64,000 nt of DNA from Saprospira grandis (lineage in GTDB: Bacteria; Bacteroidota; Bacteroidia; Chitinophagales; Saprospiraceae), in contig NZ_CP110854.1 in the NCBI RefSeq assembly GCF_027594745.1, forward strand, positions 1,244,241 to 1,308,240, read 5' to 3'. How positions within the stretch are numbered: the first letter of the stretch is position 1; each line of letters begins with the position of its first letter. Positions 51,385-57,425 of this stretch are shown piece after piece. A program made the position numbers and the translations under genes. Below the pieces are notes generated by a model. It did no database searches. It worked only from the letters and a program-made list of their open reading frames with translations, and was not told the origin of the DNA.

Positions 51385-51914
51385 CTTTTGGGGCTGCCCC
51401 AGCCTTTGGCTGGGTCGGGCTGTGTCGCAGCTCGCAGGTCTGCTCGGCCCTGCGGCGGCTTTGCCGCCTGGGTCTGGCCTAAGGGCCACTGCTTTCCATC
51501 CCTCAGCCGAGGCGCTGCGCGCCTTGGCAGGCGGCTTTGCCGCCTGCTATATGGAGGGCTGAGGCCCGGAGGGCCGAAGGCTATGCAACTAGTGTTGGCC
51601 CCCAAGGCCAACGCTAGCTGCCCCCAGGCGGAGGCGGCTTTGGAGGGCCTTTTGCCTAAAATGGAATATATTGAGGGCCAAATTTAAATTCAAGCAGAGA
51701 AGAAAATGGCCAGCCGCCTACCGCCGGCCGGGTCAAATCAGCCCGCAGGGCTGTCTGAACAAAATGCCATTTTGCAGCGGCAAAGCCGCTGCAAGGGCCT
51801 AGCGCTGTGGAGGGGTGGCCGCAGGCCAGACCAAGGAGCGAAGCGACGCAGGGCCGAGCAGACCTGCGAGCCCCGAAACATAGCGCCGCAGCAAAGCTGC
51901 GGAGGCCCCAAAAG
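51385..51914. repeat. Composite repeat block (left arm of a ~530-bp inverted repeat pair)
   Basis: Type-1 copy (TTTTGGGGCTGCCCCAGCCTTTGGCTGGGTCGGGCTGTGTCGCAGCTCGCAGGTCTGCTCGGCCCTGCG...), then a unique ~130-bp segment (..GAGGGCTGAGGCCCGGAGGGCCGAAGGCTATGCAACTAGTGTTGGCCCCCAAGGCCAACGCTAGCTGCCCCCAGGCGGAGGCGGCTTTGGAGGGCC...), then a reverse type-2 copy. The reverse complement matches 56811..57320 at ~90-95% identity. Confidence 0.75.
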
Positions 51915-51980
51915 AAAAAAGTCTAGCCCTTAAAAGAGCTAGACCATTTTTAGCGCATCAAACGCAATGGGGATAATAAA

Positions 51981-54668
51981 TTAGTGCTGGATGACCAGTT
52001 TTTGGCTCTTAATGAGCTCTCCAGCCTTATTGCGGAGCAAAACCACATAATGGCCATTGGTCCAAGACTGAATATTAAGCTCTAGGCTTCCTTCTGTAGG
52101 CAATCCTTGACGCTGGAACAAAGGCTTACCTTCCAAATTGAGCACCTCCACTTGTAGGTCGCTCTCAGAGGCCGCAGCAAAACGCATTTGAAGCATAGTT
52201 GCAGCAGGATTGGGGTTCACCAAAAGATAATTGCCCGTAGTAAAGGTAAATCCACCACGGTCGGGCAAGGTAGTAGAACCACCAGCATCACAATCCTGAA
52301 TCAATTGGATATTGCCCAAGCACTCCTGCTGACAGCCATTGGCATCAATCAGTTGGTAGGTGTACTGACCAGCTGCCAAGCCCGTAAACTGGCCGCTATT
52401 GTTATTCACTACAGTTTGCGTAGTCAAATTAGCCAAGCTAATTTGGAAAGGAGCCGTTCCGCCACTGAGGCCCAACTGCAAGCTTCCGTCATTATTATCG
52501 CAGCCAGGCTCTTGGCTACTTACAATAGACAAGCTGATAGGATCGGGCTCTACTACGGTTACTTGTGTTTGTTCGGTACAACCATTTTGGTCCACCACCT
52601 CTACGGTATAAGTACCTGCACAAAGCTGATCGATTTGATCTGTTGTGGCGCCATTGCTCCAACTATAGCTATAGCCAGCACTACCCGTAGCCACTACGGT
52701 AGCAGTTCCGTCGCAATCGCCAGCACAGCTTACCGTTGTTGCGGTAGAAGTAAGGCTAAAGCCAGGCGTGCCCATCAAGACAAAAGTGGTGTCATAAGAG
52801 CAACCATTGGCATCTGTAAGAGAAAGCTGGTACGTTCCTGCGGCCAATCCAGTAAGTGGGGCATTAACGGCAACCATTTGACCATTTGACGTTAGGGTAT
52901 AAGGGGCCGTTCCACCATCTACATTTAGACTGATGCTTCCGTTATTTTGGCCACAGCTAGGCGCTCTAAGCCCTGTAAAGTAAAGGTCTAGAGGTTCTGG
53001 GCTCATAACTTCTACAGGTTCCACATAAGAACAGCCGTTGGCATCTAGCACCACCACTTGGTAATTGCCCGCTGCCAATTGGTCAAACTGTGGACTTGTA
53101 GAGAAATTGCCTCCAATAGAATAGATATAGGGAGCTGTTCCACCACTAGCCATGATATGGATACTTCCGCCATTTCCGGCAGTCGCACAAAGTTGATTTT
53201 CTACATCAACTTGAGCATTTAGGGGTTGAACTTGGCCATCAATTTCAAAAGAGAGGCTAGAGCAATTGGGTTCACAACCATTTACATCTTCTACCCAAAT
53301 GCCATATTGGCCAGCAGTAAGATTGACAAAAACGCCAGAATTATTTTGGAAAAGCTCTCCAGTGGTCCAGTTAATCACAGAATACTGATAAGGAGCGCTG
53401 CCGCCTGTTGCGTTAATAATCGCTTGGCCATCGTTGGTTGTACAGGCCAAATCTTGAGTAGCGTCTAGGCTCACATTTATGCCAGCACAGTTGCCGCCAC
53501 CGCCAGTAGTTCCGCCTACTACATTAATAGAATAGGTATAGGTGTTTTGGCCCACCAAAGGACAGGCATCATCATGAACATTGAGGGTAAAGCTATGAAA
53601 ACCTACATCAGCTGCTGTAGGCGTCCAGCAAAACAAGCCATTTTGGAAAGGAAAGCCAGAAGTGGTAAAGACCGCTGCGGGAATTGCTCCATTATAGCTA
53701 ACAAAGGTATGTTGTCCAGAATCGGGGTCATTAGAGAAGACCTCAAAGCAAAGTTGCTGACCAACGATGATTGTCGTATCAAAAACTTGGCTACCGTTCA
53801 TTCCAGTCAATGTGGGCGCCTGATTTTGGCATTGCACCACCGTAAACTGAATATCACGGACAATCTCTCCGATTTTTTGGCCATTTCTAAACTCTTCGAC
53901 CAAAACACAGAGTACGCCCACCTGCACCGTAGAAGGCACAAAGCTAATCGCTCCAGTCGCAGGGTCAATGTTTACTCCATTTTGGGTAAGCAAAGGAGAG
54001 CTTGCTGAAATACCCTGAGCCGCATCATAAGTGACGGGGACATTAGCGGCATCATAGCAATCCGTTAGTGAATAGCGCAAAGAATCGCCATCTACATCCA
54101 TTGCTCCATGATTATAAAAAACCGACTGTCCTACACAGGCAAAAGGCGTAGGATTATTTAAAAAGGTAGGCGAGTTATTACAATTGCTCAAGGCAGTATT
54201 CAACTCCGTTTCAATATACATCATATTGGAGCCAGGCATAGTGAGCGTTGTAATTGCATTATTGCGACAACAAAGGCTCCAGCTAGCGGTCCAGTCGGTA
54301 CAAGTTGTGGGTAGCGTAACTACTGTTTCATAAGTATATTTTTCAATTCCATAAATACCGCCGCCGCCATTACAGGCCGTTCCCACAATACCCGGACAAG
54401 AGGGCGTAATTTCTACTACTCCTGCCTGCATCAAGGTACTACTGATTGTTCCACAATTGGGCGAGCTCAGCTCTAAGGTGTAGCTATTGGCGGCATTGAT
54501 TCCATTACAATCTCTATAAAATTGTAGGCTAAACTTATATTGTCCATTACCTAAACAGACATAAGTCAAATCTGCCCCCATAGCATGCGTGGCCTTAGCT
54601 TCTTGAGAGGAAAAACCCAACAACAGAAGCAGAAAGAACAGGCCCGTTCTTAGCATAGATGTTTGCAT
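51981..54668 (-). CDS. SprB-repeat cell-surface protein with a T9SS C-terminal sorting domain
   Basis: 895 aa with signal peptide. At least five SprB-type repeats (GGSAPYQYS...GQYGIWVEDVNGCE, GGTAPYIYS..GNYQVVVLDANGCS, GGTAPYTLTS..GTYQLSLTDANGCS, YSYSWSNGATTDQI..CAGTYTVEVVDQNGCT, GGTAPFQIS..GQYTYQLIDANGCQ). C-terminal CTD ..LELNIQSWTNGHYVVLLRNKAGELIKSQKLVIQH. Confidence 0.75.
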   Translation of the reverse strand: MQTSMLRTGLFFLLLLLGFSSQEAKATHAMGADLTYVCLGNGQYKFSLQFYRDCNGINAANSYTLELSSPNCGTISSTLMQAGVVEITPSCPGIVGTACNGGGGIYGIEKYTYETVVTLPTTCTDWTASWSLCCRNNAITTLTMPGSNMMYIETELNTALSNCNNSPTFLNNPTPFACVGQSVFYNHGAMDVDGDSLRYSLTDCYDAANVPVTYDAAQGISASSPLLTQNGVNIDPATGAISFVPSTVQVGVLCVLVEEFRNGQKIGEIVRDIQFTVVQCQNQAPTLTGMNGSQVFDTTIIVGQQLCFEVFSNDPDSGQHTFVSYNGAIPAAVFTTSGFPFQNGLFCWTPTAADVGFHSFTLNVHDDACPLVGQNTYTYSINVVGGTTGGGGNCAGINVSLDATQDLACTTNDGQAIINATGGSAPYQYSVINWTTGELFQNNSGVFVNLTAGQYGIWVEDVNGCEPNCSSLSFEIDGQVQPLNAQVDVENQLCATAGNGGSIHIMASGGTAPYIYSIGGNFSTSPQFDQLAAGNYQVVVLDANGCSYVEPVEVMSPEPLDLYFTGLRAPSCGQNNGSISLNVDGGTAPYTLTSNGQMVAVNAPLTGLAAGTYQLSLTDANGCSYDTTFVLMGTPGFSLTSTATTVSCAGDCDGTATVVATGSAGYSYSWSNGATTDQIDQLCAGTYTVEVVDQNGCTEQTQVTVVEPDPISLSIVSSQEPGCDNNDGSLQLGLSGGTAPFQISLANLTTQTVVNNNSGQFTGLAAGQYTYQLIDANGCQQECLGNIQLIQDCDAGGSTTLPDRGGFTFTTGNYLLVNPNPAATMLQMRFAAASESDLQVEVLNLEGKPLFQRQGLPTEGSLELNIQSWTNGHYVVLLRNKAGELIKSQKLVIQH

Positions 54669-56768: not shown

Positions 56769-56803
56769 TGGGAGCAGCAGTTTACTGTTGCTCCCTTTTT
56801 TTA
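56769..56803 (+). terminator. Rho-independent terminator after sbtB
   Basis: Hairpin GGGAGCAGCAGTTTACTGTTGCTCCC followed by TTTTTTT. Confidence 0.6.
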
Positions 56804-56810
56804 TTCTCTT

Positions 56811-57425
56811 TTTTGGGGGCCTCCGCAGCTTTGCTGCGGCGCTATGTTGCGGGGCTCGCAGGGCTGCTCGGCCCTGCGTCGCTTCGCTCCTTGGTCTGGC
56901 CTGCGGCCACCCCTGCACAGCGCTAGGCCCTTGCAGCGGCTTCGCCGCTGCAAAATGGCATTTTATTTAGACAGCCCTGCGGGCTGATTTGACCCGGCCG
57001 GCGGTAGGCGGCTGGCCACTTTCTTCTTTGCTTGAATTTAAATTTGGCCCTCAGTATATTCCATTTCAGGCAAAAGGCCCTCCAAAGCCGCCTCCGCCTG
57101 GGGGCAGCTAGGGTTGGCCTTGGGGGCCAACCCTAGCTGCATGGCCTTCGGCCCTCCGGGCCTCAGCTTATACATCCTGCAGGCGGCAAAGCCGCCGCAA
57201 AGGCGCGCAGCGCCTCGGCTGAGGGGCTGTAGCAGGGCCGCCAAAGGCGGCAGACCAAAGCGGCGCAGCCGCTGCAGGGCCGAGCAGACCTGCGAGCTGC
57301 GCAATGGCCCGACCCGACCAATAATTCATGAGGGTTTTAACCCTCATTTTGTATAAGCTCGCAAAGCGATGCCGCTTTGCGCTGGGTTTCAACCCGGCGG
57401 AAGGGGCAGCCCCAAAACAAAAAAA
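56811..57425. repeat. Composite repeat block (right arm of the inverted repeat pair) plus an extra terminal copy fragment
   Basis: 56811..57320 is the reverse complement of 51385..51914 (type-2 forward copy, the unique segment, then a reverse type-1 copy). 57360..57425 carries another family end (GGGTTTCAACCCGGCGGAAGGGGCAGCCCCAAAA). Confidence 0.75.

Follow-up and report, generated by a model that had tools for sequence, protein, structure and literature searches.

Inverted repeats take several well-described forms. In invertons, repeats of about 10-35 bp act together with a dedicated tyrosine or serine recombinase encoded adjacent to or inside the segment they bound, while inverted rRNA operons, insertion sequence (IS) copies and plastid inverted repeats, with their small hairpin-loop flips, evolve in concert by conversion. 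Here we examine a pair of half-kilobase inverted repeats, the arms, that flank a 4.9-kb segment of Saprospira grandis DNA carrying a SprB-like surface protein gene together with sbtA and sbtB; all coordinates refer to the 64,000-nucleotide stretch analysed (contig NZ_CP110854.1, positions 1,244,241 to 1,308,240), which we call the window. Ectopic recombination between inverted repeats has been documented for bacterial IS elements (PMC3004938). Among short repeat families, repetitive extragenic palindromes (REPs) have a unit of 20-40 nt with a GTAG or CGTC tag at one end (PMC3733652); these units, the bacterial interspersed mosaic elements (BIMEs) and the REP doublets known as REPINs are abundant extragenic mosaics that occur singly or as inverted doublets, have compensatory stems and G.T pairs, and persist vertically over long periods (PMC3733652, PMC6006769, PMC3116915). 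Miniature inverted-repeat transposable elements (MITEs) with long structured bodies, such as Correia/NEMIS of Neisseria, ERIC, RUP and Nezha, are non-coding, measure 100-600 bp and carry terminal inverted repeats (PMC3733652).

The arms are a true long inverted duplication. An inverted-repeat search of 49000-60000 returned an ungapped pair at 51558-51916 and 56809-57167 (359 nt, 96% complementary, with 4892 nt between the arms) and a second inverted piece at 51406-51476 and 57251-57321 (71 nt, 85%). In gapped alignment, 51406-51916 and the reverse complement of 56809-57321 agree at 462 of 510 positions (90.6%), and the inner 417 bp (51500-51916 against 57225-56809) at 393 of 416 (94.5%), the longest perfect blocks being 50, 44 and 33 nt. 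No other inverted pair of the window is as long, the runner-up measuring 91 nt, and the arms stand as GC-rich islands (0.55-0.61) within DNA of 0.41-0.50 GC. Both contain members of a repeat family of GC-rich, mosaic units of 130-160 nt, here termed modules, among which identity has a background of 0.70 and a maximum of 0.93; the inner modules of the two arms (51777-51920 and 56805-56948) are 0.96 identical. A preliminary description of this sequence had recognized the inverted arms and had taken them for a long duplication rather than two independent copies of the family. The self-alignment it proposed as a check supports both statements, as the pair lies well above unrelated family copies (94-96% against about 70%) and shares a private centre found in both arms. 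The description had also noted a segment of about 130 bp lacking from other repeat copies; such a segment exists, but its length is 244 bp (51549-51792).

The composition of the arms emerges from a BLAST comparison of the left arm with the window, in which arm positions 170-413 (51549-51792) match only the other arm (57177-56933) and about 20 further loci match only positions 1-169 or 414-541. Each arm is thus a doublet, consisting of an outer module, the private 244-bp centre and an inverted inner module. On the left, a type A outer module that starts with TTTTGGGGCTGCCCC lies on the plus strand at 51384-51543 (nhmmer family profile, E = 2e-36), followed by the centre at 51549-51792 (no strand assigned), which is 93.4% identical to its right copy, and by a type B inner module on the minus strand at 51777-51916 (nhmmer, E = 1.4e-27), sense-oriented 3' of the SprB-like gene. 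The right arm runs from a type B inner module on the plus strand at 56809-56948 (nhmmer, E = 2.5e-26), sense-oriented 3' of sbtB, through the mirrored centre at 56933-57177 (BLAST and alignment, likewise without strand) to the core of an outer module of 'R' subtype on the minus strand at 57183-57323 (nhmmer, E = 1.2e-23, model positions 22-159), sense-oriented 3' of ftsH. It extends to about 57420 because a nested 92-bp insertion at 57319-57410 (no strand; delimited by alignment between strains) splits this outer module, parting its first 15 nt from the remainder; the detached 5' end, again TTTTGGGGCTGCCCC, is found on the minus strand at 57403-57420 (sequence and alignment). The insertion occurs in the window, in strain Lewin and in the European Nucleotide Archive (ENA) contig L017, and is missing from strain DSM 2844 and from Saprospira sp. 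CCB-QB6. It has a hairpin of its own (ATGAGGGTTTTAACCCTCAT), and a 27-nt piece of it recurs on both Saprospira plasmids.

Between the arms, the outer modules agree at only about 74% of positions. Inside a single arm, the outer module is complementary to the inner one at 81-90% over seeds of 31-52 nt and at about 80% over 100 nt, and each arm is predicted to fold alone into one long hairpin (z = -11.6 and -11.5). The hairpins of the centre are GC-rich and its middle is AT-rich; in the middle lies a promoter-like TTGAAT-17-TATATT (minus strand, 51693-51665, in the left arm; plus strand, 57032-57060, in the right) that, with a Bacteroidetes-type TAAATTTG, is predicted to be directed outward in both arms. 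The arms are without coding capacity, since their open reading frames (ORFs) have no match beyond the same arms of other strains: a protein search with a 149-aa arm ORF returned SGRA_1327, SGRA_1333 and SapgrDRAFT_0917, annotated proteins of Lewin and DSM 2844 that all belong to these arms. As this search missed every module-derived ORF, it is weak evidence for the existence of two arm copies only. Rfam returned only noise, for the window at the gathering threshold and for the left arm at E <= 5, with no family for the centre. The centre is absent from the 108 kb of two Saprospira plasmids, though these carry 23 and about 22 modules, and no further copy was found in about 190 kb of Saprospira DNA containing about 65 modules. 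A scan of genome contigs with its 20-mer GGGTCAAATCAGCCCGCAGG gave one chance match, in an alphaproteobacterial metagenome-assembled genome, and was uninformative, the 20-mer being absent from DSM 2844 and CCB-QB6; GCCGCCTACCGCCGGCCGGGTC gave one chance match among metagenome contigs, in a contig of 61% GC, from a collection evidently without the Joint Genome Institute (JGI) contigs of the locus.

To place the arms in an evolutionary setting, the window was compared with the corresponding loci of Lewin (97.2% identity), DSM 2844 (93.7%), CCB-QB6 (78-89%) and the JGI metagenome contig L001 (97.2%), and with two ENA contigs crossing the right arm, L017 (96.2%) and the CCB-QB6-like L021. Both arms are present in Lewin, DSM 2844, L001 and the window. 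All compared loci are collinear, and the enclosed block has the same order and orientation in seven of seven assemblies, which include three finished genomes and one long metagenome contig. Four short-read contigs from several samples (L002, L003, L006 and L009) contain nothing but the 4.96-kb block and end within the two inner modules; Saprospira short-read assemblies thus break exactly at the arms, and draft genomes do not reveal which way round the block lies.

The comparison with the sister species CCB-QB6 separates the two arms. Its right arm contains the centre (whole arm 80% identical; centre 84.5-87%, with one or two gap positions). In its left spacer, a 42-bp tandem array of about eight copies (5926-6290 of its locus L012) takes the place of the centre shared by the S. 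grandis arms; the outer module beside this array is a different one, and the inner module is orthologous. Family modules were therefore already present in both spacers in the common ancestor with CCB-QB6. CCB-QB6 carries the SprB-like gene, the 146-aa ORF, sbtA and sbtB, and L021 has the same genes at the same site, again without the left-arm centre, indicating that the cargo predates the shared centre and its duplication. Left and right centres differ by 6-8% within S. grandis, against 13-15% between the right arms of S. grandis and CCB-QB6, which fits a duplication after the species split.

Variation among the arms points to continued exchange between them. The eight arms of four S. grandis genomes have 113 variable columns, and only nine of these part all left from all right arms; seven columns are the same within each genome and different between genomes. 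In the right arm of DSM 2844 all bases of 51410-51499, together with those of 51593 and 51613, are of left type, at positions where the remaining right arms and CCB-QB6 share one state. A hairpin cassette at 51833-51847 occurs as three alleles, paired as A,A (window), A,B (Lewin), B,B (L001) and B,C (DSM 2844). The shared columns, the DSM 2844 patches and the cassette alleles require repeated non-reciprocal transfer, and patchy gene conversion between the arms is evident in all four S. grandis genomes. At four isolated sites (51664, 51671, 51757 and 51876) the left and right states are swapped between strains, a hint of two crossovers, of which this is the expected pattern. The loop of a perfect hairpin at 51782-51784 reads AAA in most S. 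grandis arms and TTT in the right arm of DSM 2844 and in CCB-QB6, a flip suggesting that hairpins extrude and recombine. Such reverse-complement loop flips were also noted between strains in hairpin 1 of the inner modules. The AT-rich middle of the centre varies freely. Like other inverted repeats that evolve in concert, the arms are more alike within than between genomes, with patchy tracts and loop flips, and differ in being non-coding members of a repeat family, about 0.5 kb long, with no inversion isomer seen. They offer a clean natural example of conversion-driven concerted evolution between half-kilobase inverted repeats without a fixed inversion.

Two operons diverge from a central region at 54669-55448, each ending at its own terminator a few bases before an arm. 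The intrinsic terminator of the SprB-like gene (51920-51945, minus strand; an 11-pair stem followed by TTTTTTCTTTT) abuts the inner end of the left arm, that of sbtAB (56770-56795, plus strand; an 11-pair stem followed by TTTTTTTATT) abuts the inner end of the right arm, and that of ftsH (57425-57456, minus strand; a 14-pair stem followed by TTTTTTGTTT) abuts the right arm's outer end. The left arm lies in the spacer between the SprB-like gene and the next gene, the right arm in that between the convergent sbtB and ftsH, and both have the same sense relative to the operon reading into each. A very long RNA duplex, one of three roles suggested for the arms in the preliminary description, is unlikely because these three terminators part the arms from the transcription units; no unit spans both arms, and 3' extensions into them would be alike rather than complementary, as each arm has the same sense relative to its operon.

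We consider it probable, without regarding it as settled, that the pair arose when one doublet was copied locally, by homology, into the adjacent spacer, has been kept similar by conversion, and plays no role in switching or moving genes. On this view the right arm would have been the source, once the species had split, for the homology-primed copying that produced the left copy. This polarity is inferred because only the right copy is common to CCB-QB6, and it would be reversible if conversion has kept the S. grandis arms young-looking. Break repair with the inverted neighbouring module as template is a likely route, and RecA-type recombination may have maintained the similarity afterwards. 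Because the arms lie outside all three transcription units, beyond the terminators, they would represent a structural by-product of repeat-family dynamics rather than a switching, moving or regulating device. A RecA-mediated flip of the 4.9 kb might occur now and then with little effect; it is fixed in no genome seen. A second pair of doublets with a shared centre, on the Lewin plasmid L015 (35-506 and 46164-46741; 84% over 353 bp, in direct orientation, about 8 kb apart across the origin), indicates that local copying of whole doublets recurs. The likeness of the outer flanks, AGGGCCAAATGTTTT on the left and AGGGGCCAGATGTTTT on the right, the latter being half of the ftsH terminator stem, is only a weak hint of right-to-left copying, since words resembling GGGCCAAA are common here.

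Several observations weigh against this origin by copying. CCB-QB6 may instead have replaced an ancestral left copy while conversion kept the S. grandis arms similar, in which case the proposed direction of copying would not hold. The identity of the outer modules, about 74%, equals the family background, so that either the copied tract ended near 51500 or an outer module was later overwritten. Assemblies reveal the majority isomer only, and the copies of the centre were counted within about 190 kb rather than genome-wide, which leaves room for a low-copy mobile element. Finally, at about 85% identity and with one indel, the centre is better kept between the species than are four-fold sites (42-78%), and it shows two or three compensatory hairpin pairs; together these hint, from sequence comparison, at some constraint and possibly at a function. 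RNAalifold met too little variation in the centre to decide, and other intergenic regions show similar conservation between the species (71-92%).

The arms might instead be two independent insertions, in opposite orientation in adjacent spacers, of a low-copy, non-autonomous MITE- or REPIN-like element mobilised in trans by a transposase with its gene elsewhere, with the modules as its terminal inverted repeats. Each arm does have inverted terminal modules of 100-130 nt and no coding capacity, module ends sit exactly at terminator T-tails or gene boundaries, the plasmid has another doublet pair with a shared centre, and inverted doublets moved by single-copy Y1 transposases, including atypical Bacteroidetes subclasses, are described in the REP and REPIN literature (PMC6006769, PMC3116915). 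Yet neither arm has a direct target-site duplication, the outer flanks (...GGATTTTC before the left arm and ...CAAAAAAAACATCTGG after the right) sharing no direct repeat; the left site of CCB-QB6 is not empty and holds modules, which implies replacement rather than insertion; the centre has no other copy among the roughly 65 modules surveyed; the annotated proteins of Lewin and DSM 2844 match only through the ORFs of these same arms; the positions and orientations of modules are kept between species, against recent mobility; and no Y1-transposase motif was found in the window, plasmids and loci examined. This origin is accordingly unlikely, if still worth considering. Improbable, by comparison, is that the centre is a functional cis-element or small-RNA gene, duplicated behind both outward operons, for instance to give them a common 3' element for regulation or stabilisation or an outward promoter. 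The common sense of the arms relative to the incoming operons would suit such a role, as would the interspecies identity of 85% with a single indel, a CTAG hairpin with compensatory pairs (U.G, G-C and U-A) and the predicted promoter-like motif, but the terminators precede both arms, no Rfam match appears even at E <= 5, CCB-QB6 and its relative L021 manage without the left copy, other intergenic regions are similarly conserved, and the AT-rich middle is freely variable.

The two remaining suggestions of the preliminary description, DNA inversion and a mobilised cassette, are likewise unsupported. The arms evidently recombine: 417 bp at 94.5%, with perfect blocks of up to 50 nt, is enough for homologous recombination, abundant conversion indicates that the arms pair, and the four swapped sites are as expected from two successive crossovers. 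That they drive a recurrent, possibly adaptive RecA-dependent flip-flop, such that cultures are mixtures of two isomers, is nonetheless quite improbable given a single orientation in all seven assemblies; the swapped sites are isolated single positions that may be parallel changes, and no recombinase occurs among the ORFs of 46191-60885, whose Pfam families are GH18 (twice), hypothetical, SprB/type IX secretion system (T9SS), Sbt_1, P-II, FtsH, RsfS and BPL (the 346-aa and 146-aa ORFs have no family match). Inversion would moreover switch nothing: neither transcription unit reaches beyond the segment, each stops at a terminator of its own, and no promoter-gene link would be altered. As for a composite-transposon-type cassette, only the geometry of long inverted repeats around a gene block speaks for it, and we regard it as scarcely credible: the arms are non-coding, transposase genes are lacking and a six-frame scan showed no HUH/Y1 motif, no target duplication is present, the same genes keep their order and place in CCB-QB6 and L021 without the left-arm centre, and a distant relative has sbtAB in a different context free of modules. 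The composition check that the description had proposed gave the same answer, as the cargo (GC 0.43-0.48; GC at third codon positions, GC3, 0.41-0.55) has the values of its flanks. The arm pair is thus neither an inverton nor a composite transposon. It shares with invertons and shufflons the bracketing of a segment with a surface-protein gene by inverted repeats, and differs in its arm length of 510-610 bp, the lack of a recombinase gene, the absence of a promoter or coding junction at the arms and the single orientation observed.

What sets the region at 51.4-57.4 kb apart is only the homology through the private centre, as gene blocks throughout this DNA are bracketed by inverted modules. 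With the nhmmer profile, 21 modules were found in the window (at 1903, 2972, 5337, 9146, 11630, 13925, 16476, 17373, 22375, 23425, 31415, 32741, 37264, 39681, 44946, 45825, 51384, 51915, 56810, 57323 and 61659) and 23 around the complete 54.9-kb Lewin replicon, a density of about one per 3 kb on the chromosome and the 55-kb replicon alike. Positions and orientations are the same in CCB-QB6. Module identity is 86% for orthologues and 70% otherwise, while the four-fold sites of neighbouring genes reach only 42-78%. An alignment of 40 modules from the window and the Lewin plasmid L015 revealed conserved blocks, GCTCGC-N5-6-GCTCGGCCCT and GGTCTG, with hypervariable hairpins between them and a long-range closing helix; the module core accordingly combines this closing helix with a CGGCC/GGTCTG helix that is invariant and a hairpin that is hypervariable. 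Paired cells make up 95.8% of the alignment, compared with 79% in shuffles and 26-57% with slid partners, and cells with double changes number 119 against 43 in shuffles, none of 500 shuffles reaching the observed values. The fold contains one invariant G.U pair, which makes it strand-specific.

The orientation of the modules is strikingly regular, alternating in 36 of 40 neighbouring pairs (p about 1e-7; the calls were confirmed by an independent motif scan). Alternation is seen at 17 of 20 neighbours in the window and at 22 of 23 transitions around the circle of the Lewin plasmid, persists when single modules are considered alone (19 of 20 transitions, p about 2e-5), and holds even in consecutive spacers of the co-directional pur operon. 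All nine short module pairs are (+,-) and always heterotypic. A model in which alternation arises by copying of neighbours was rejected as a general rule, as adjacent and random pairs are equally similar (0.70 and 0.70; permutation p = 0.43); exceptions, in which adjacent modules are closely alike, are the inner modules of the arms (0.96) and one plasmid pair (0.93). The (+,-) pair at 1903-2972 encloses an HSP20 family gene (2178-2624), and plasmid pairs likewise enclose purH, purD, paaZ and parA-rep, demonstrating that module pairs can bracket cargo.

In its behaviour this family is closest to the REP, BIME and REPIN elements of Proteobacteria, with which it shares extragenic GC-rich abundance, mosaic blocks and hairpins, inverted doublets, alternation inside clusters, positional stability and compensatory stems. 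The Saprospira unit, in contrast, is a multi-helix structure of 130-160 nt rather than a palindrome of 20-40 nt, its doublets are heterotypic and can span 0.5-1.3 kb or enclose genes, and its alternation extends across consecutive spacers, not only within clusters. The GTAG tag of REPs, beside hairpin 1 on the antisense strand, occurs in about 12 of 40 modules, about a third, and is therefore not general; ATAG is found in about nine and ACAG in type A. No REP-associated tyrosine transposase (RAYT) or other Y1 HUH transposase was found in the window, plasmids or loci examined, and the supplements of PMC6006769 list no Saprospira RAYTs. The resemblance to MITEs lies in the proximity to genes, the strong hairpins, the frequent location at 3' ends or promoters and, for the arms, terminal inverted repeats around a small non-coding body. 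The arms differ from MITEs in lacking a target-site duplication and in module ends that merge with terminator T-runs and A-runs, and, in the approximately 190 kb examined, the whole arm occurs in two copies while its terminal modules are very many. No insertion or empty-site polymorphism was found between species, the left site of CCB-QB6 and the paaZ spacer holding variant elements. Membership among MITEs fails on target duplication and finds no support in insertion polymorphism within the DNA examined.

We found no description of this Saprospira family in the searchable literature, and it is apparently undescribed. The arms thereby expose an unusually dense family with a covarying, strand-specific fold that has remained in place across species whose synonymous sites are nearly saturated. 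A doubtful extension is that the arm pair is one case of a genome-wide system, in which strand-specifically folded modules, about 5% of the DNA in total, lie at both ends of nearly all gene blocks in strict alternation, keep their places between species, and act or spread as inverted pairs. Such pairs might be the termini of cargo-bearing cassettes ([+ purH -], [+ purD -], [+ HSP20 -] and [+ centre -]) or pairing partners in single-stranded DNA or RNA; were this so, Saprospira genomes would regularly change through homology-driven copying and flipping between adjacent pairs. If alternation proves genome-wide, a mechanism is needed that known REP or MITE models do not supply. In our assessment the arm pair is of modest interest, and it is the family, above all its alternation, that merits a genome-wide look.

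The genes enclosed by the arms are those listed in the preliminary description, with the SprB-like gene on the minus strand and the ORF, sbtA and sbtB on the plus strand. The first (51981-54668, minus strand) encodes an 895-aa SprB-repeat surface protein secreted by the T9SS (Pfam SprB, E = 3.3e-27; Por_Secre_tail, E = 3.4e-10; TIGR04183), 78% identical in amino acids to its CCB-QB6 orthologue. The low-complexity ORF at 54868-55308 (plus strand, 146 aa), which had been called doubtful, is indeed there, and the doubt is weakened because it is called in every genome, at the same length in Lewin, DSM 2844, CCB-QB6 and the metagenome contigs; its product, 82% identical to that of CCB-QB6 and without a Pfam or NCBIfam match, probably represents a real small gene. 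A 327-aa permease of the Sbt_1 family is encoded by sbtA (55449-56432, plus strand; Pfam PF05982, E = 3.8e-118); it is 97% identical to S. grandis WP_002657759, and its cluster comprises the proteins of str. Lewin, of DSM 2844, of Saprospira sp. CCB-QB6 and of a further S. grandis genome, whose protein (WBM75617.1) is encoded on a Logan contig 100% identical to the window. The P-II-like protein of 99 aa is encoded by sbtB (56435-56734, plus strand; Pfam P-II, E = 1.2e-13).

Outside the segment, a 178-nt non-coding leader (51184-51361, minus strand) upstream of a 346-aa gene (50143-51183) is 97.2% identical, ungapped, between S. grandis and CCB-QB6, while the gene itself is 82% identical, with four-fold sites at 45% and a protein that is 96% conserved and matches no family. 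The leader shows no significant RNA folding (z = -0.46) and so probably acts as a promoter or operator to which a protein binds. Further to the left, Lewin has an rve-family integrase of an IS (L013, 10-765) beside the first GH18 gene (left of about 46295 in the window), which the window lacks and which has no flanking modules.

Some module cores are replaced or interrupted by a motif of about 47 nt, ACAAC.AGC.CT.TAGGG.CGC.AGTTCGA.GACC.A.GGGAGTA.C, which includes a GTTCGA stretch and occurs at 49660-49740 of L016, 11400-11450 of L012 and 20430-20480 of L015. The paaZ spacer, considered as an empty site in the comparison of Lewin with CCB-QB6, was rejected as such: it holds a degenerate module whose core is replaced by this motif. 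The 53-55-kb Saprospira 'plasmid' (L015 and L016; NC_016936.1, NZ_CP116809.1) carries genes for purine, pyrimidine and guanine biosynthesis (purQ/H/C/B/D/N/F, guaA/B, pyrD/F) and the paa cluster, and looks like a chromid rather than an accessory plasmid. Elsewhere in the window, two tandem tRNA-Gln(TTG) genes (11841-12033), 120 bp apart, lie between a plus and a minus module, and three tandem paralogues of about 326 aa occupy 18246-21332 on the minus strand with a period of 1088 bp (repeat families D2, D7, D8 and D12).

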